From positions 1 through 11,690 of the forward strand of contig JANOTL010000101.1 of assembly GCA_031416315.1 (NCBI GenBank): a DNA stretch of 11,690 bases. The letters are read 5' to 3'. The stretch's first letter is position 1. Each line of letters starts with the position of its first letter. Below the pieces are notes generated by a model that was not told where the DNA came from, ran no database searches, and saw nothing but the letters and a program-made list of their open reading frames with translations. Shown here one piece after another: positions 3,604 through 11,589 of the stretch. The translations under genes were made by a program, and so were the position numbers. This DNA comes from Pseudomonadota bacterium (GTDB lineage Bacteria > Bdellovibrionota_B > Oligoflexia > Oligoflexales > CAIYRB01).

Positions 3604-3911
3604 ATGCACAGCGCGAAACGTGACGATCGTCAAAGCCTTCAGCACGAAGGCCCCGGCCAGTGCCCCTGGCGCGAGCGCATCCGCGAGCATTACGCGGAGG
3701 CCGGTGACGACTACCGGACCTGGAGCCCCGCCTACAACATGCATTTCGGCTTCTGGCGGCTCGGCCTCGGCCCGCTCGACCGCGAAGCGCTGCTGGTGGA
3801 GATGACGCGGCAGGTGATTTACCTGCGGCGAGCTTCGACGCGGCGCTGGCGATGGAGTCGGCCTGTCACGACGAGGGCCTCGCAAAGGCGGGCTTCGTGA
3901 AGGAGGCGGCG
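3604..3911 (+). pseudogene. Class I SAM-dependent methyltransferase pseudogene (internal deletion with frameshift, 3' truncation)
   Basis: Frame +1 (3604-~3815): IREHYAEAGDDYRTWSPAYNMHFGFW...REALLVEMTRQV, an N-terminus of the sterol/tocopherol-type MTases. Frame +3 from ~3816: DLPAASFDAALAMESACHDEGLAKAGFVKEAA, the motif II region. Motif I (LDxGCG) is missing between them, and LKPGG and the C-terminus are missing after 3911. Confidence 0.8.
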
Positions 3912-5191: not shown

Positions 5192-5232
5192 AGGAGTAGA
5201 CCTCGTGGGTTTCGGTTTGGGTACGAACGGTT

Positions 5233-5409
5233 TGTAGCGCCTCGCCGTCGCGGAAAACACTGAGCCTGGCTGTGCGGCGTGACCCAAATACGCCGTGATC
5301 ATCGCTGCGCCTCGCAATCGCCTCACGGGAGTGAGGGAGGCTGCGTGGTGACGCGCGCCGTGACGGAATAAAGTCCTCTCAGTCCCGGGAAAACCGCCGG
5401 GCTCCTACA
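5233..5409. promoter_or_regulatory. Divergent control region with mirrored CTCAGT-N21-CTACA motifs
   Basis: Plus strand: CTCAGT 5378-5383, 21 nt, CTACA 5405-5409. Minus strand: CTCAGT 5264-5259, 21 nt, CTACA 5237-5233. GTGAY pairs at 5279/5295 and 5348/5360, and a central CCTCAC-GGGA-GTGAGG hairpin at 5321-5336. Confidence 0.45.
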
Positions 5410-5437
5410 CAAGCTCTCGAAAACAGGGTGAATTTTC

Positions 5438-7684
5438 ATGATCTACGTCACCGGCCTCTACTCCGGCCCCAGCCCCTCGGCCGGCCTCGGCGTCGCCCGC
5501 TGCCTCCGCGAAGGTCTGGCAAAGGTCGAGCTCGTCGGCGTCGACTTCTGGTCGGGAAGCTCGGGCCTGCATGATCCGATATTCGACCGCGTCCTGTTGA
5601 AGCCCTCCTGGGATTTGATCGAGGTCGACCTTCATGCCGAGGAGCTGTCGCAAGCGCTGGCGCAGGGCGGCGCCTGGCTGTCGACGCTCGACGTCGAGAT
5701 CGCTTGGCTCTCTCGCACCTTCGAGAGCGCGCCGGGGATGCTGACGCCCGGCTCGCGCGCCCTGGCGCAGACGGTGAAGCCGCACGCTTCCATCGGCTCG
5801 GTCCTGCCCCTGCGCGAGGCGAAGGTCATGCTCTTGAGCGACGAGCTCGCCGACGCGGACGTGCACGAGTTCTGCCGCCGCCACTCCTGGCGCGTCTGGC
5901 TGAAGGGGCCTTATCACGAGGCGCTTTACATCCGCAGCTGGCGGGATCTGGAGAATGCGCGCCGTTTTCTGGCCTTGCGCTGGAAGACGGAGGAGCTCTT
6001 CCTGCAAGCGCACGTGCGCGGGCTCGAGGAATCGGTGGCGTTCTGCGCCGTGAACGGCAAGCTCGTCGACGCCGTCGCCATGCACAAGCGCGTGACGACG
6101 CCCGACGGCAAGACCTGGGCCGGTCGCATCAGCGACGTGGCGCCCGCGATGCTGGCGGCCGTCGAGACCGCGGTGGCCAAGATGAATTGGACCGGCGGCG
6201 CCGAGATCGAGATCCTGCGCGACGCCGACGAGACGGCCTGGCTCCTTGAGATCAACCCGCGCTTTCCCGCGTGGATCTACGGCGCCGCGATCGCCGGCCG
6301 CAACTTGCCGGCGAAGCTCGCGAGCGCGGCCCTCGGGATCCCGCTGGCGCCGCTGCGCCGCCTCCAGGCGCAGGAGTTCACCCGCGTCGTCAGCGAGATT
6401 CCCGTGACGCCCGCCTATCCGCTGCCGGTGCCGGCTCAGCCCGATTACGCGACGATCGGCGCCGTCGGCAAGTACGGCGCGGCGCTTTCGAGCATCGTCG
6501 AGCTGCTCGGCGCGGCCGATGCGGCAGCGGCGAAGACGACCGATACCCCGAAAAAAGCCGCACCCGTGCGCCCCCTGGCGCCCGAGCTGGCCCGCGAGCT
6601 CGACGCGCTCGGGATCATGGTCGGCGCGACGCCGCAGCGGATGAACCTGGAAGACGTGAGCACGAGGCTCTTCGACGCGGCCCTGACCCGCGTGGTCGGC
6701 GAGTCCGAAGGCGTCGAGCGCCGCGTCGCGCTCAGCATCAAGACGGCGCCGGATCTCGCGCTCCTGCGGCAGGCACGGGTGCGCGGATTCTTTGCCGAGG
6801 CGATCTCCGCCTTGGAGGTGCGGCGTGCGGTCGAGGCCGGCTTTCCGCCGGGGGAGATCGTGCTCAACGGTCCCGGCAAATGGTGGCCGCAGACCGAGGT
6901 CGTGCCCGACGGCTTGCGCGCGGTCTTCTGCGACTCCGTGCCGGAGCTCGAGCGGTTGATCGCCTCGGGACGCCGGGATTTGGCCTGGGGCGTGCGCCTG
7001 CGCCTGCCCGCGTTCGACTCGCGTTTCGGCATTCCGGTGGAGGAGCCCGAAGCTTTCGCGGCGCTCGCCGGCGTGCTGTCGCGCATTCCGAAGGGGATCG
7101 AGCTCGGCGTGCATTTTCACATGGCGAGCAGCGGCATCGGCGTCGGCGTGTGGCTCGATGCGATCGAGTCGGCGCTGGCTTGGGCGGCGGCGCTCGAGGC
7201 GGCAACGGGCCGCGCGATCTCCATCGTCGACATGGGCGGCGGCTATCATCCGGACGATCTGGGGCGCTTGCCTTGGCCCGAGCTCTCGGCGCGCTGCCGC
7301 GAGCGCCTGCCGAAGGTGACGACGGTGATCGTGGAGCCCGGAAAAGCGCTGTCGCAGACGGCGATGGCGCTCGCGACGCGGGTCCTCGACGTCAGGCGGC
7401 GCGACGGCGAGGTCGAGGAGATCGTCGTCGACGCCTCGATCGCGGAGCTGCCCGTGGCGTCGCTGCATCCGCATCGTTTGGTGCGGCGCTCGGCCAACGG
7501 CATCCCCGAGGCGATCGGCCGCGGCAGAGGCCGTGTTTTGGGCAGGATCTGCATGGAAGACGACATCCTCGCGGCGAACGTCAACTTGCCGCCCGAGCTC
7601 GAGGTCGGAGATCTCCTCTGGATTCTCGACGCGGGCGCTTACGATTGGAGCATGTCTTATGGATTTGGACGCGGCGGCTACTGA
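5438..7684 (+). CDS. Fusion of an ATP-grasp carboxylate-amine ligase (N-terminal) and a PLP-dependent Orn/DAP/Arg (group IV) decarboxylase (C-terminal), 748 aa
   Basis: ATP-grasp part: IYVTG, VWLKGP, FLQAHVRGLE, KTWAG, WTGGAEIEIL, LLEINPRFPAW (E271, N273). Ala/Lys/Pro-rich linker near 6505-6580. Decarboxylase part: SIKT (PLP Lys435), AEAISALE, IVLNGPGK, GVHFHMAS, VDMGGGY, EPGK, GRICMEDD (Cys705), DAGAYDWSMS. Confidence 0.9.
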   Translation: MIYVTGLYSGPSPSAGLGVARCLREGLAKVELVGVDFWSGSSGLHDPIFDRVLLKPSWDLIEVDLHAEELSQALAQGGAWLSTLDVEIAWLSRTFESAPGMLTPGSRALAQTVKPHASIGSVLPLREAKVMLLSDELADADVHEFCRRHSWRVWLKGPYHEALYIRSWRDLENARRFLALRWKTEELFLQAHVRGLEESVAFCAVNGKLVDAVAMHKRVTTPDGKTWAGRISDVAPAMLAAVETAVAKMNWTGGAEIEILRDADETAWLLEINPRFPAWIYGAAIAGRNLPAKLASAALGIPLAPLRRLQAQEFTRVVSEIPVTPAYPLPVPAQPDYATIGAVGKYGAALSSIVELLGAADAAAAKTTDTPKKAAPVRPLAPELARELDALGIMVGATPQRMNLEDVSTRLFDAALTRVVGESEGVERRVALSIKTAPDLALLRQARVRGFFAEAISALEVRRAVEAGFPPGEIVLNGPGKWWPQTEVVPDGLRAVFCDSVPELERLIASGRRDLAWGVRLRLPAFDSRFGIPVEEPEAFAALAGVLSRIPKGIELGVHFHMASSGIGVGVWLDAIESALAWAAALEAATGRAISIVDMGGGYHPDDLGRLPWPELSARCRERLPKVTTVIVEPGKALSQTAMALATRVLDVRRRDGEVEEIVVDASIAELPVASLHPHRLVRRSANGIPEAIGRGRGRVLGRICMEDDILAANVNLPPELEVGDLLWILDAGAYDWSMSYGFGRGGY

Positions 7685-8288
7685 GCTTTCGCCTGCATGG
7701 CAGGCGGCGGCGACCTCGACCCTCGTCTCGCACGGCGCCTGCTGCGTGCAGGCGCGCGCCTGGCTTCTGGCCAGCGCTCGCTCTTTCGATTTCGCCCGCA
7801 GCGATCGGGCCACCTTCTCGGCACCGCGCTGGCTGACGCGCCGGTACGTGTGGGGCCCGACGCGGTGGCCGATCTCGTGGTGCGAGGCGGTGAAGGCGAA
7901 GACGATCGACTGCGGCGTGTTCGCCGTGTTCGCGCGGGAGATCTTTCGCGCCAAGGGCATCGAGGCTTACGGCGGGCAGGTGATCCGCAGCTACGACGCC
8001 GCCTCGCTCGCGCACTGGCGGGCGAAGTGGGCGCGCCATCCCGAGGCGTTCCCGTGGATCGGCGAAGACCAGGTATTTCACGAAATCGTCGTGGTCCGTA
8101 GCGGACGCGACACTGCGAGGATTTATGATCCGACCGACGGCATTTGGCTCGACTCCGGCACCTTCTCCGGCCACTACGGCCACGTCGCGATACGCGGCGA
8201 CAATCCCATCCCGCTCGATTGGGGCGCGACGCGCCTTCGTCGAGGGCAGTGGACGGCTCTGGGCCGGGCTCCGCGCCTCGACGCTTGA
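7659..8288 (+). CDS. Transglutaminase-like (papain-fold) protein with Cys-His-Asp triad, 209 aa
   Basis: ATG 7659 with GGAG SD at 7647-7650, overlapping the upstream gene by 26 nt. TIDCGVFAVFAREIFRAKGIEA (Cys85), VFHEIVVV (His141), IYDPTDG (Asp157) follow the transglutaminase-like core pattern. No signal peptide. Confidence 0.75.
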   Translation: MDLDAAATELSPAWQAAATSTLVSHGACCVQARAWLLASARSFDFARSDRATFSAPRWLTRRYVWGPTRWPISWCEAVKAKTIDCGVFAVFAREIFRAKGIEAYGGQVIRSYDAASLAHWRAKWARHPEAFPWIGEDQVFHEIVVVRSGRDTARIYDPTDGIWLDSGTFSGHYGHVAIRGDNPIPLDWGATRLRRGQWTALGRAPRLDA

Positions 8289-8301
8289 GGCTCTGCGCGC
8301 G

Positions 8302-9192
8302 GTGTCGATGACCGTGTTCGCGTCCGACTGGAAGGTCGGCTTGGGGCTCGCGCTCGGGCTTCTCCTCGTATCGCCGGGGCATGCGCTGGCCGGAGCGTTG
8401 GGGCTCGTCTGCGCGCACGTCGGCGCGAAGCTCGCACGAACGCCGGCGGATCTGGTGCGCGCCGGCTTGGGCGAGCTGAACGGCTGGTTCGCGGGGATTG
8501 CGGTGTTCAGCTGCTTTGCGGGAACGGTGCCGATCATTCTGCTGACGATCGCCGTTGGCGGGCTTTCCGGCGTCGGCGTCGCGCTGGTGAAGCGCGTTTT
8601 GGCGCCCTGGGATTTGCCGGTGCTGGTGGCGGGCTATCTGGCGCCGGTGTGGGTCGCGTTCGCGGCGCTCGGCGGCGTGTACGGCCGCGCCCTGCCCGAA
8701 GTCTCGGCGCTCTCCGAGCTCGGGCCGCTCGCGGCTTGGAGCCAAGGGGCGCTGCGCGGCTTGGGCGAGATCTTCTTCGTCCCGGATGCGCGCCTGGGAC
8801 TCGTGTTTCTCGCGGCGCTTGCGTGGACGTTTCGGCGGCAAGCGCTGTTCGCCGCGGGGGCGGCGGTTCTGGGCGTCGCGGTCGCCGATCTCGCCGGAGC
8901 CCCGGCGTGGTTCACGCAGCAAGGGCTCGGCGCCTTTGTCCCGGCTTTGGTCGCGGCGGCGGCGGCGAAGCGCTGCCAAGGTTTTGGCTGGGGTCTCGTC
9001 GCCGCGGCGGTCGTCCTCGGGCCCTTCGTCGAGTGGGCGGCGATCTCGGTGGCGGGGCGCTTGGGATTGCCCGCGCTTTCCATCGGTTACCTCGGATTCG
9101 TCTGGATCGCGGTGTGCGTGAAGCCGGTCGCCCATGACGGAATGGCATGGAAACCCATGCCGGACTATCAGAAAGACTCGAGTTTTATTTAA
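8302..9192 (+). CDS. Urea transporter (UT)-fold membrane channel, divergent; start uncertain (GTG 8302, ATG 8308 or ATG 8125)
   Basis: Highly hydrophobic, with two homologous halves: LRAVSMTVF...GLGLALGLL...AGLGELNG...LPVLVAGY and LRGLGEIFF...LGLVFLAAL...QGLGAFVP...LPALSIGY. This matches the UT repeat pattern LRGxxQVFF...GLxGxN...LPxLTxPF. Confidence 0.72.
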   Translation: MSMTVFASDWKVGLGLALGLLLVSPGHALAGALGLVCAHVGAKLARTPADLVRAGLGELNGWFAGIAVFSCFAGTVPIILLTIAVGGLSGVGVALVKRVLAPWDLPVLVAGYLAPVWVAFAALGGVYGRALPEVSALSELGPLAAWSQGALRGLGEIFFVPDARLGLVFLAALAWTFRRQALFAAGAAVLGVAVADLAGAPAWFTQQGLGAFVPALVAAAAAKRCQGFGWGLVAAAVVLGPFVEWAAISVAGRLGLPALSIGYLGFVWIAVCVKPVAHDGMAWKPMPDYQKDSSFI

Positions 9193-9225
9193 AATGTCGA
9201 CGATATTTCATGAATCCTATAGGAT
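9183..9225 (+). promoter_or_regulatory. Sigma70-type promoter TCGACG-N17-TAGGAT with AT-rich UP-like tract and overlapping palindrome ATCCTATAGGAT
   Basis: AT tract 9183-9194; -35 at 9197-9202; -10 at 9220-9225; perfect 12-bp palindrome 9214-9225; downstream GGAG (9241-9244) and in-frame GTG 9251. Confidence 0.55.
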
Positions 9226-9250
9226 GATCGGCATCGATCCGGAGAGCTTC

Positions 9251-11116
9251 GTGCCGTCTTCGCCGCTCAGCTCGAAAGCCTTTGCTTCGCCTGCCTTCTC
9301 CGCCTTCGTGCGCGGAGACTACGAGGCCGTGCTCGGGGGGCGGATCGACGTCGCCGAGCCGGTGGGCCGAGACGACGTCGCCTGGGTTATCGGGGCGCTC
9401 GCGTTCGTCGGGCGTATCGACGAGGCGGAGGCGCTGACGACGGCGCGCGGACCGGATCTCGATGCGGAGCCTCGCGCCGGCGCGCGCTTTTTCCTCGCCG
9501 TCGCCTTGGCTCGCGGCGGGCAAGCCGATCGCGCCCGGAAGCTCCTCGACTCGAGCTTCCGCGAAGCGCGCATCGACGGCGGCTGGATCCTCACGTTCTT
9601 CGCGGCGCAGGGTTACGCCTTTTTCCGCCACTACGAAGGCGTGCTCGGCGCGGCCCGGCTTTGGGCGCGGCAGGCGCTGAAGGCGGCGACTGCGGGCGGT
9701 TTCGGCTACGGGCGCGCGCTCGCGAGCGAGATGCTCGGCTTGGCGGAGCTCGACTCCGGGCTTACCCGCAGCGGCCTGCGGCACCTCGGTATCGCGCGGA
9801 AGATCGCCAGCGAGCTCGGCAAGGGCGCTTTGGGCCAGGCCTTCGACGCGAGCGACCTCTTCTATCGCTCGATGTATGGCTTGGCGCCGGCCGCGACGAT
9901 CGAAAAAGAGCTCGAGGCGGCGATCGAGAAATGCCGGTTCGAGGACAGCTACACGAAAGCGGAGCTGACCGTGGAGTTGGCGCGCGTGCACGTCTTGCAG
10001 GGGCGGTTGGCGCGCGCCGAGAAGCGCCTCGGCGAGGCGAGCCAGCTCGTGTATCAGATCGACAATCCCGCGCTCGAGGTCGACTACGCCGTCACCTTCG
10101 GCAACTTGCTGCGCCGGCGCGGCGAGCGGCTGCAAGCGCTTTCGATCGTGCGCGGCGCGAGGCGTCGCGCGGTGCCGCTCGGCGTGACGCGCAACGTTTT
10201 GCGGGCGACGGGACTCGAGTTGGCGCTGGCGCAGGAGCTGGAGCTTTACGACGACGCGGCGTCCCTCACCAGGGGACTGGCGCGTTTGACGCGAAGGTCT
10301 GGGAGCGCGCTGGCGGCTCGGATCGCGGCGCGCGGAGGTCGCGAGCGGCCTTACGTCGGTCGTCCGGGCGAGGACCCGCTCGGCGATCTCATCGACTTCG
10401 TGCATTCGCGCGACGACGCGGCGCTCGACGCCGTGGTGACGAGCGGCTGGCACGGCATCCTGGTCGACGCGTTGCGCGTCGGCGCCGACGAGCGCTGCAT
10501 CTATTTCGACGTCGAGCCGAGCTCGATCACCTTGATCGATCGCGGCGAGGTCCTGCATTTGCCCGGCGCGGGCGTCGGTCTCGTGCGCCGGCTGCTCACT
10601 GGCTTGGCCAGCGGGGCGCGCTCGAAGGAGCAGCTCGCGCAGGCGATCTGGGGACGGTCGTACAATCCGCTGCGGCACGACGGTCCAATTTATACGCTCG
10701 TGGCGAAGGCGCGGAAGACCCTCGGAGGCTTCGGCGAATGGATCGAGGCGTGCGAGATCGGCTATCGCCTGCGCGCGGGCGTGAGCGTGCGGCAACGCAG
10801 CTTGAGCCGCGAGCCCGTCCACGCCGCGGCGCCGCGCGCGAAGGAGCAGGTCGTAGAGGCGAAATCGGGCGTCGAGGCGCGGATCGCCGCGGCTTTGAAC
10901 GCGCGGCAGCAGACGATGCTGATGATGATGCGGGACGGCGAGGTCCTGGACCCGCGCACGGTCATGCAGCGGTTCGACATTTCGGATGCGACGGCGAGCC
11001 GCGATCTCGCGGGACTCGTCGAATTGAAGTTGGCGGAGCGCGTCGGCAAGGCGCGCTCGACCCGTTATTTGGCCCGCCGGAGCGATGCGCTTCCGGCTCG
11101 AGAGGGGATTCAGTGA
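9251..11116 (+). CDS. Transcriptional regulator: TPR-like helical region, OmpR/PhoB-type winged helix, and C-terminal DeoR-like winged helix (~621 aa; alternative starts 9194, 9224)
   Basis: Ala/Leu-rich helical repeats; SKEQLAQAIWGRSYNPLRHDGPIYTLVAKARKTL...GYRL (OmpR-type wHTH); LNARQQTML...FDISDATASRDLAGLVELKLAERVGKARSTRY (DeoR/Fic-tail-type wHTH). Confidence 0.85.
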   Translation: MPSSPLSSKAFASPAFSAFVRGDYEAVLGGRIDVAEPVGRDDVAWVIGALAFVGRIDEAEALTTARGPDLDAEPRAGARFFLAVALARGGQADRARKLLDSSFREARIDGGWILTFFAAQGYAFFRHYEGVLGAARLWARQALKAATAGGFGYGRALASEMLGLAELDSGLTRSGLRHLGIARKIASELGKGALGQAFDASDLFYRSMYGLAPAATIEKELEAAIEKCRFEDSYTKAELTVELARVHVLQGRLARAEKRLGEASQLVYQIDNPALEVDYAVTFGNLLRRRGERLQALSIVRGARRRAVPLGVTRNVLRATGLELALAQELELYDDAASLTRGLARLTRRSGSALAARIAARGGRERPYVGRPGEDPLGDLIDFVHSRDDAALDAVVTSGWHGILVDALRVGADERCIYFDVEPSSITLIDRGEVLHLPGAGVGLVRRLLTGLASGARSKEQLAQAIWGRSYNPLRHDGPIYTLVAKARKTLGGFGEWIEACEIGYRLRAGVSVRQRSLSREPVHAAAPRAKEQVVEAKSGVEARIAAALNARQQTMLMMMRDGEVLDPRTVMQRFDISDATASRDLAGLVELKLAERVGKARSTRYLARRSDALPAREGIQ

Positions 11117-11589
11117 TGAAATTCAATTGGTCGTGTGTCGCGGTGTTGGGATTGGTCGCAGGATCGGCGCTCGCGGATGACGTCGAAGGCTCTTACATGA
11201 TTCCGGCTTCGGACACGCTGTCCGCGCCGCTGGAGCTCGGGACCACGAAAGCCCGCTTCAAGAAGCTCGGCGCGACGGGCGCCGAGATCGTCTACGAGAT
11301 GCCCCGGGAAATCGACGGCGCCGACCCGCAGCGCTTCGTCCTGCGCGGCGAGATCGAAGGTGGTGAGTACCTGCTGAAGGGTAGCGGCGCCACGGGGCAT
11401 TGCCCATTGGAGGGTCAGGAAAGCGGCTGCCGGATCGAGTACGTCGGTCTCGTGCTGCAGGAAGAGGCCGCGGACGAATACGTCGCGAGCCTCGGGTCGT
11501 CTGCGGAGCAGGTGGAGCTGATGAAGACGGCGCGCGCATCGTTGGCGCGGCAAGGAGTGGGGATCTTGCGGCCGCGGGTGCTGGAGTGA
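11116..11589 (+). CDS. Secreted hypothetical protein, 157 aa
   Basis: TGATG overlap with the regulator stop; GAGGGG SD at 11102-11107; signal MKFNWSCVAVLGLVAGSALA; Cys pair in GHCPLEGQESGCRI. Confidence 0.85.
   Translation: MKFNWSCVAVLGLVAGSALADDVEGSYMIPASDTLSAPLELGTTKARFKKLGATGAEIVYEMPREIDGADPQRFVLRGEIEGGEYLLKGSGATGHCPLEGQESGCRIEYVGLVLQEEAADEYVASLGSSAEQVELMKTARASLARQGVGILRPRVLE

Follow-up and report, generated by a model that had tools for sequence, protein, structure and literature searches.

In the rhizoferrin (FigA/FigC, also FslA/FslC), SbnH and vibrioferrin (PvsA/PvsE) systems, a fold-III decarboxylase acts on the product of a ligation. The described systems nearest to the one reported here are the closthioamide and butirosin pathways. 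In closthioamide biosynthesis an ATP-grasp enzyme loads aspartate onto a carrier, the decarboxylase CtaF refuses free aspartate and the cycle repeats (PMC7183216). Papain/transglutaminase-like enzymes then transfer or cleave the chain (accessible parts of PMC7183216 and PMC7898593), and for CtaJ the accessible part of PMC7898593 describes cleavage of a carrier-bound intermediate. A carrier is encoded at the locus for 95% of the CtaD homologues (PMC7183216). In butirosin biosynthesis BtrJ, BtrK and BtrH attach an acidic amino acid by ligation, decarboxylate it in the tethered state and move it by means of a papain-like enzyme, as the accessible part of PMC7183216 describes. Here, we analysed a window of 11,690 nucleotides (nt), which is one complete contig (JANOTL010000101.1) of the Pseudomonadota bacterium assembly GCA_031416315.1 (6.4 Mb, 93% complete; order Oligoflexales). 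It carries a module of three genes that encode an ATP-grasp ligase fused to a pyridoxal 5'-phosphate (PLP) decarboxylase (A), a transglutaminase-like enzyme (B) and a membrane protein of the urea-transporter family UT (C). All characterised pathways with the trio of ligase, decarboxylase and Cys-His-Asp enzyme that we found in the literature depend on a phosphopantetheine carrier.

The closthioamide cluster and the module both combine an ATP-grasp enzyme, a PLP decarboxylase of the ornithine/diaminopimelate/arginine (Orn/DAP/Arg) family and Cys-His-Asp enzymes in one cluster free of nonribosomal peptide synthetases (NRPS), as can be seen for CtaD, CtaF, CtaG and CtaJ in the accessible parts of PMC7183216, PMC7898593 and PMC12865890. 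However, closthioamide biosynthesis involves the phosphopantetheine carrier CtaE and a thioamide synthetase, neither of which was found for the module, whereas the module has a fused ligase and decarboxylase, an invariant linker lysine and a UT-family channel. In its predicted structure B carries its cysteine mid-chain in a transglutaminase-type core (209 residues, Cys at 85, without a helical C-terminal domain), whereas CtaG has an N-terminal Cys11 and a bipartite build; the resemblance between the two is faint (Foldseek E 0.12, TM 0.15). With butirosin the module shares the logic of ligation, tethering, decarboxylation and transfer, and BtrK matches the decarboxylase of A (E 4.6e-11, Z 29.2). 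Butirosin intermediates, in contrast, form a thioester on the acyl carrier protein (ACP) BtrI, and the module has neither an ACP nor aminoglycoside genes, nor does B match BtrH_N. Among the hallmarks of a thiotemplated pathway, the ATP-grasp enzyme, the fold-III decarboxylase and the Cys-His-Asp enzyme (the latter with predicted activity) are present at the locus, and no carrier was found. The module is a real, recurring and undescribed system, which would work like closthioamide and butirosin biosynthesis but without the carrier that defines them. We found no description of it in the open-access literature; subscription journals and supplements (e.g. Table S4 of PMC7183216) were outside the scope of this search.

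The 91 loci examined comprise 11 from genomes and, out of 577 matches in metagenomes, the best 80; they are not independent and include many near-duplicates. B follows A in all 77 loci that hold the 3' end of A with 300 nt or more beyond it, and an overlap of the B start with the A stop recurs in most loci. C was found in 32 of the 59 loci with 900 nt or more past B. A FastTree phylogeny of ATP-grasp domains (86 in total, with 12 incomplete loci left out), for which the split operon described below supplied the root, placed all C-bearing loci, the window included, in one clade of 39 (support 0.98), and the loci outside that clade lack C. Since C is present in only part of the loci and confined to the clade of the window, the invariant core consists of A and B, and the three-gene form corresponds to a single clade with a patchy distribution. 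The custom UT profile had missed the UT domains of the split operon, and hence the 27 loci without C were rechecked for hydrophobic segments: 21 of them contain no open reading frame (ORF) with four or more such segments, and the eight ORFs of this kind in the remaining six belong to other families, including a histidine kinase and one ORF clustering with it. In the phylum of the window B occurs in 6 of 131 genomes, always with C adjacent.

The search for a carrier was negative at several levels. PP-binding gave no match among the 128 scanned of 183 small ORFs called in related loci, and the 11 PP-binding matches of the source genome are all on other contigs. PqqD (custom profile) and M23 gave no match in the 91 fused loci, PqqD none in the source genome by the same profile, and no Pfam PqqD was detected among the 128 small ORFs. 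The combination of PqqD or a RiPP recognition element (RRE) with a separate precursor, which marks RRE-dependent RiPPs (peptides made on the ribosome and modified after translation), was not found at the fused loci.

Both domains of A were identified at the levels of sequence and fold. Pfam returned ATPgrasp_Ter (30.8 bits, cut-off 29.1), Orn_Arg_deC_N (48.3 bits) and Orn_DAP_Arg_deC (41.1 bits). Among 7995 scored candidates there were 638 homologues of A, and the best 120 share 41-55% identity with it, nearly all over the full length. The AlphaFold model, calculated from 125 rows, reached a predicted local distance difference test score (pLDDT) of 91.6 and a predicted template modelling score (pTM) of 0.90. 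When residues 1-331 were compared with solved structures, 2pn1 (Z 21.5), GAR synthetase (Z 20.9) and PylC (Z 20.6) were tied. PylC acylates the epsilon-amine of lysine, and its structure among the tied matches is a complex with L-lysine. For residues 378-740 diaminopimelate decarboxylase (Z 30.2), FigC (Z 29.8) and BtrK (Z 29.2) were tied within about 1, and SbnH scored Z 28.4. In the 125 rows K114, K217, K225, E256, E258, N273 and R275 of the ATP-grasp domain are invariant and K156 and E271 are conserved at 90% or more; in the decarboxylase K435, E633, C705 and Y735 are invariant and H561 and G600-G602 nearly so. K435 and C705 align with the Schiff-base lysine and the catalytic cysteine of solved decarboxylases. 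Judged from these alignments, the predicted catalytic residues of both domains are conserved. A role of A as LysA in lysine biosynthesis was rejected, since it scored 89.9 bits with TIGR01048 (cut-off 297.9) and a true lysA (483 bits, above the cut-off) is located on another contig of the source genome.

Between the two domains a single residue stands out. K345 is a lysine in 125 of 125 rows and is the sole column at 0.9 or more in a linker (positions 336-397) with a mean top-residue share of 0.33. In the structure comparison it is outside both solved folds, and the preceding residues 342-344 have a pLDDT below 50. The linker lysine motif was present in 84 of 86 loci, the two misses being cut sequences; this count is descriptive, since the pattern was derived from the same data.

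A sister operon with split genes helps to interpret this lysine. Its gene order is PqqD, ATP-grasp, decarboxylase, UT::M23 and an outer-membrane barrel-like protein, TPR or ABC-2 genes (L027-L034, L139), and it was found in 10 of 131 genomes; for this operon, too, the open-access literature yielded no description. Its ATP-grasp enzyme shares the motifs NPxPG, KxW and NPRFPAW with A, its decarboxylase is homologous to that of A (HHalign 99.6%) with FslC as best NCBIfam model, and it has in common with the module a UT-family membrane domain and a conserved tail lysine. In contrast to the module, ligase and decarboxylase are unfused and accompanied by PqqD, M23 and envelope genes, and B was not detected in the eight split loci scanned. 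The best model for the PqqD is a lasso chaperone. In 112 of 120 homologues the split decarboxylase opens with a tail that contains Y-x-K-P-x-hydrophobic and, 14-16 residues on, K-x-G. Lasso RREs bind a motif of this kind, YxxPx[hydrophobic], according to the accessible parts of PMC13381572 and PMC12710340. From the sequences we infer that the tail lysine of the split decarboxylase and K345 of the fused enzyme may be equivalent. Two further ideas on the relation of the operons were dropped. That the linker of the fused enzyme retains a vestige of a YxxP leader is suggestive only, since 62 of 125 rows fit a loose pattern at one spacing within a proline-rich stretch. Mutual exclusivity of the two operon types at the genome level had no weight either, because zero overlap (6 vs. 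10 of 131) equals the chance expectation.

B matched no Pfam or NCBIfam family, and against the sequences of solved structures its best E-value was not below 0.89. The predicted fold was more informative. The model (pLDDT 90.9) places C85 at the opening of a helix (85-98), H141 on a strand (138-147) and D157 on another (152-157). Structural matches were factor XIII (Z 8.3) and other transglutaminases, PeiP (Z 7.5, root-mean-square deviation 2.9, 117 aligned), PeiW, PNGase and NATs, and PeiP and PeiW are endo-isopeptidases. The top 35 matches (Z 8.3 to 4.7) are modest but uniform, nearly all of them transglutaminase/NAT/PNGase-like, and Atlas features (0.92 to Transglut_core) agree with this list. 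The triad of C85, H141 and D157 shows no variation across 47 rows (35 of 50 proteins and 12 locus ORFs, three of them duplicates), and in 150 diverse representatives it was found at 144/147 (C), 146/147 (H) and 135/142 (D) aligned positions. On the basis of this model, B has a transglutaminase-like fold with a Cys-His-Asp triad and is a putative acyl-transfer enzyme of a family with 335 clusters at 50% identity. The additionally conserved H25, C28, C29 and C75 form a possible zinc site. One protein (P0352), a single case, joins a B-family domain to a radical SAM domain that resembles RaSEA (TIGR01210 206.8 bits, cut-off 212); RaSEA acts on a lysine adduct. Apparent A::B (P0388) and B::UT (P0328) fusions were read as frameshift artefacts.

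C matched Pfam UT with 97 bits (cut-off 25) over profile positions 5-289 of 292, which covers both repeats, and its profile matched solved urea transporters with E-values from 1e-22 to 1e-48. It thus shares family and fold with dvUT, UT-A and UT-B, but differs from them in its pocket (T5a, 3a aromatic, Q-Pa). Urea is recognised by a Q-T-T-Q motif with the 3a/3b aromatics, and T5a and the 3a aromatic matter for urea flux (accessible part of PMC11589576). The pore columns of C were mapped by eye from the profile alignment. In all 33 rows T5a is V, I or L and never T, and the 3a aromatic is replaced by L, I or V; at T5b, 20 of these rows have S, 8 have A and 4 have T. In the copy of the window T5a is changed to V, the 3a aromatic to L and Q-Pa to M, and two prolines kept by most relatives are missing. 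As read from these columns, the cytoplasmic-side urea pocket is altered. A search of 10 genomes with the module gave no urease above the cut-off, and one of five gave no urea carboxylase, several of these genomes being incomplete; with these negatives, urea uptake as nitrogen source was rejected. UT-bearing genomes numbered 12 of 131, six with C beside B and six with the split operon.

Much of this had been anticipated when the window was read from its sequence alone, without database searches (sequence-only reading). The ATP-grasp/PLP-decarboxylase fusion is backed by Pfam scores above the cut-offs and by fold matches, the transglutaminase-like nature of B by its predicted fold and invariant triad, and the altered urea-transporter-fold channel by the UT match and the changed pocket; the residues named there (E271 and K435 of A, C85 of B) were correct. 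No NRPS or carrier protein was seen at the time, and we also found none on the contig or among the 128 small ORFs of related loci. The clusters of ATP-grasp, DAP-decarboxylase-like gene, urea transporter, PqqD and M23 mentioned there turned up in eight loci, and the module matched no characterised pathway that we found in the open-access literature. Co-occurrence of the three genes held for A and B but only in part for C. Among the parallels drawn, the logic of ligation, decarboxylation and transfer is supported, whereas K345 and the closest analogue, closthioamide, were missing from them. The proposal that the module makes or attaches an amide-linked amine and moves a substrate or product through the channel agrees in its first part with that logic, but the channel is outside the invariant core.

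The lack of a carrier, the flexible arm with its invariant lysine, the loss of the RRE on fusion and the isopeptidase-like character of B are most simply explained if K345 is the carrier. According to this reading, to which we assign a probability of about 0.45 and which draws on sequence, models and analogy, K345 would be a built-in carrier for a small amide-linked amine, B would release this product, the fusion would replace PqqD and B would replace M23. In a first step the ATP-grasp domain would phosphorylate the side-chain carboxylate of an amino acid, by analogy most likely Asp or Glu, and ligate it to the epsilon-amine of K345. The linker would then swing to the PLP domain, where removal of the alpha-carboxyl group would leave a beta-alanyl- or aminobutyryl-type unit, and this cycle may repeat as in closthioamide biosynthesis. 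C85 of B would subsequently attack the lysine-linked amide, and hydrolysis or transfer to an acceptor amine would free K345. In the clade of the window the small product would finally pass the membrane via C, which may instead pass the substrate; other clades lack C and have oxygenases or a desaturase instead. The general logic of ligation, decarboxylation and release is probable and likelier than either detail, be it K345 as carrier or as lid. More tentative is the full scheme, in which the fused enzyme is its own carrier, so that amino acids are loaded as isopeptides onto the linker lysine, decarboxylated there and perhaps polymerised without phosphopantetheine, a new transglutaminase family releases them at a repurposed urea channel, and the split operon works likewise with an RRE docking the decarboxylase tail.

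Several observations weigh against K345 as a carrier or against the reading as a whole. An invariant loop lysine could equally be a lid or a catalytic residue. In the near-identical loci L096 and L098 the lysine is one position off, and two linker lysines are present in seven loci (L005, L006, L007, L009, L011, L107, L108). The tails of the fused and split enzymes did not align in a profile comparison starting at residue 395, so that they are equated on the grounds of a short motif and its location, and one genome (G133) has both operon types. For B, Foldseek returned no match at E 0.001 or better and the top structural Z was 8.3. C is missing in 27 of the 59 evaluable loci, and many of the loci, which are not independent, are near-duplicates. 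Finally, the near-tie of diaminopimelate decarboxylase, FigC and BtrK means that a tethered or a free substrate is not readable from the decarboxylase fold. The main rival explanation, which we regard as possible but doubtful, is a pathway of free small molecules. Here, the ATP-grasp domain would join two free metabolites, the PLP domain would decarboxylate the product in the style of FigA/FigC or PvsA/PvsE, B would trim or transacylate it and K345 would be a lid binding substrate or phosphate. Such a pathway needs no carrier protein, the defined packing of the two domains of A (pTM 0.90) would suit channelling, FigC is among the tied top folds and, of the NCBIfam models, FslC scored best with the sister decarboxylase. 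On the other hand, the corresponding lysine of the split operon belongs to the decarboxylase chain, where it follows an RRE-type motif, and a dedicated PqqD is encoded next to it; this arrangement is more in keeping with a substrate peptide than with a lid. Compared with the siderophore systems themselves, A scored 38.6 bits vs. a cut-off of 500 for FslC, and no conserved synthetase for NRPS-independent siderophores and no conserved siderophore uptake genes were found at the loci.

Pairs of ATP-grasp and transglutaminase genes were reportedly proposed by Iyer in 2009 as tagging/untagging systems, and the resemblance of B to isopeptidases would suit a scheme in which another cellular protein or the envelope receives from A an amino-acid tag, which A also decarboxylates and B takes off again. 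This is unlikely, since no target gene is conserved across clades at the loci, the oxygenases, TauD and desaturase found there suit small-molecule tailoring, and the channel would remain unexplained. Still less likely is a thiotemplated pathway like those of closthioamide and butirosin, for which an acyl or peptidyl carrier encoded elsewhere would be borrowed. The enzyme trio is the same and the PP-binding matches on other contigs could supply the carrier, but a carrier at the locus is the rule for 95% of CtaD homologues (PMC7183216) and none was found here, and K345 would be left without explanation. That C is an ordinary urea channel hitch-hiking beside A and B appears very improbable: its UT membership and its absence from 27 loci would fit, whereas the replacement of T5a and of the 3a aromatic in all 33 rows, the negative searches for urease (10 genomes) and urea carboxylase (five genomes), several of these genomes being incomplete, and the restriction of UT genes to the 12 genomes with C beside B or with the split operon speak against it.

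Source names of homologues include Methylomirabilota, Polyangiaceae, Pyrinomonadaceae, Caulobacteraceae, Burkholderiaceae and Sphingomonadales, and genome records with A come from Oligoflexales, Bdellovibrionia, Bacteriovoracaceae and Methylomirabilota. No relative was found among viral contigs, and the plasmid collection yielded one record with a relative. On a plasmid of a cultured Streptomyces (L118, NZ_CP108525.1, 6650-11083) A and B, both annotated as hypothetical, are followed by a gene of the fatty-acid-desaturase family. In the channel-less clade many loci have Asp/Asn-hydroxylase-like pairs and TauD upstream of A. These pairs are tandem proteins of ~250 amino acids (aa) with an HxD...H motif, no Pfam match and Atlas features of 0.96 (L064, L067, L077, L079, L084, L091, L104, L114). 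Where two linker lysines mark a subclade, its loci also have a gene for a BPL_N (glutamine-amidotransferase-like) protein and mostly one for a barrel-like protein. In the related loci listed in Table 1 a small protein with conserved Cys and His motifs, blank in Pfam and NCBIfam, is encoded directly upstream of A, mostly divergently; it is not present in the window, and we take it to be C39-peptidase-like from its appearance.

Table 1. Coordinates of the module and associated features (positions refer to the window unless a locus is named)
Feature	Position	Strand	Remarks
Divergent spacer	5192..5437		246 bp between secreted-protein gene and gene A; presumed control region
Gene A, ATP-grasp ligase::fold-III (Orn/DAP/Arg family) PLP decarboxylase	5438..7684	+	748 aa; Pfam/NCBIfam, AlphaFold
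ATP-grasp domain of A	5438..6430	+	aa 1 to about 331
K345 codon, G-K-Y-G in interdomain linker of A	6470..6472	+	proposed built-in carrier site (putative)
PLP decarboxylase domain of A	6569..7657	+	aa 378-740
Gene B, transglutaminase/papain-like Cys-His-Asp enzyme	7659..8288	+	209 aa; predicted fold
Gene C, urea-transporter-family membrane protein	8125..9192	+	Pfam UT; start uncertain, conserved part from near 8290
Gene D, TPR/HTH putative regulator	9194..11116	+	Pfam HTH_DeoR; associated, not core
Gene E, probably secreted protein	11116..11589	+	157 aa; no known family, no family match; associated, not core
Cys/His protein of related loci	L001:7423-7869; L005, L006, L007, L010, L011, L096, L098, L099, L117, L138		140-180 aa

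The positions of the module and its neighbours are summarised in Table 1. As the sequence-only reading had it, A, B and C are tightly packed and co-oriented, with overlapping ORFs according to the ORF calls and the B start 26 nt within A, and the divergent region upstream is real. In this spacer we found no sigma-70 consensus site, no Rfam match and at most short two-copy repeats. The start of C is uncertain: there is no in-frame ATG, GTG or TTG from 8125 to 8302, most relatives start within about 15 nt of the B stop, and C may either overlap with B by 164 nt, use a rare start codon or have a first pore helix that is shortened. The separate promoter postulated downstream of C was not recovered, since a sigma-70 scan of the entire window gave a single site at 2854 and D may start with an ATG at 9194, one base past the C stop. 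The next two genes, D and E, travel with the module, at a distance of up to about 5 kb and in varying orientation, in six related loci (L001, L003, L004, L008, L010, L138). E was detected near the module by tblastn in five related loci, and in L008 via clustering. D has three strong paralogues elsewhere in the source genome; it may regulate the module, or D and E may be a separate unit. The window also contains an IS4/5 transposase remnant (283-534), a short ORF after a TetR gene (3604-3900) that by eye looks like a truncated methyltransferase and is blank in Pfam, and a stand-alone M23 peptidase gene (2174-2746) behind a TIGR02147 gene 2.7 kb upstream. This M23 gene did not match the M23 profile of the sister operon and appears unrelated. 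Rfam gave zero matches.

The cultured Streptomyces plasmid NZ_CP108525, which carries the core of A and B, offers a practical host for work on this system. If the proposed reading is true, assembly without a carrier protein, on a lysine built into the enzyme, would be a new logic that genome-mining tools miss, and in the split operon the recognition of RiPPs would be linked to chemistry of the closthioamide type. An unnamed transglutaminase family of 335 clusters would also gain a function, and bacterial proteins of the UT fold a first non-urea role.

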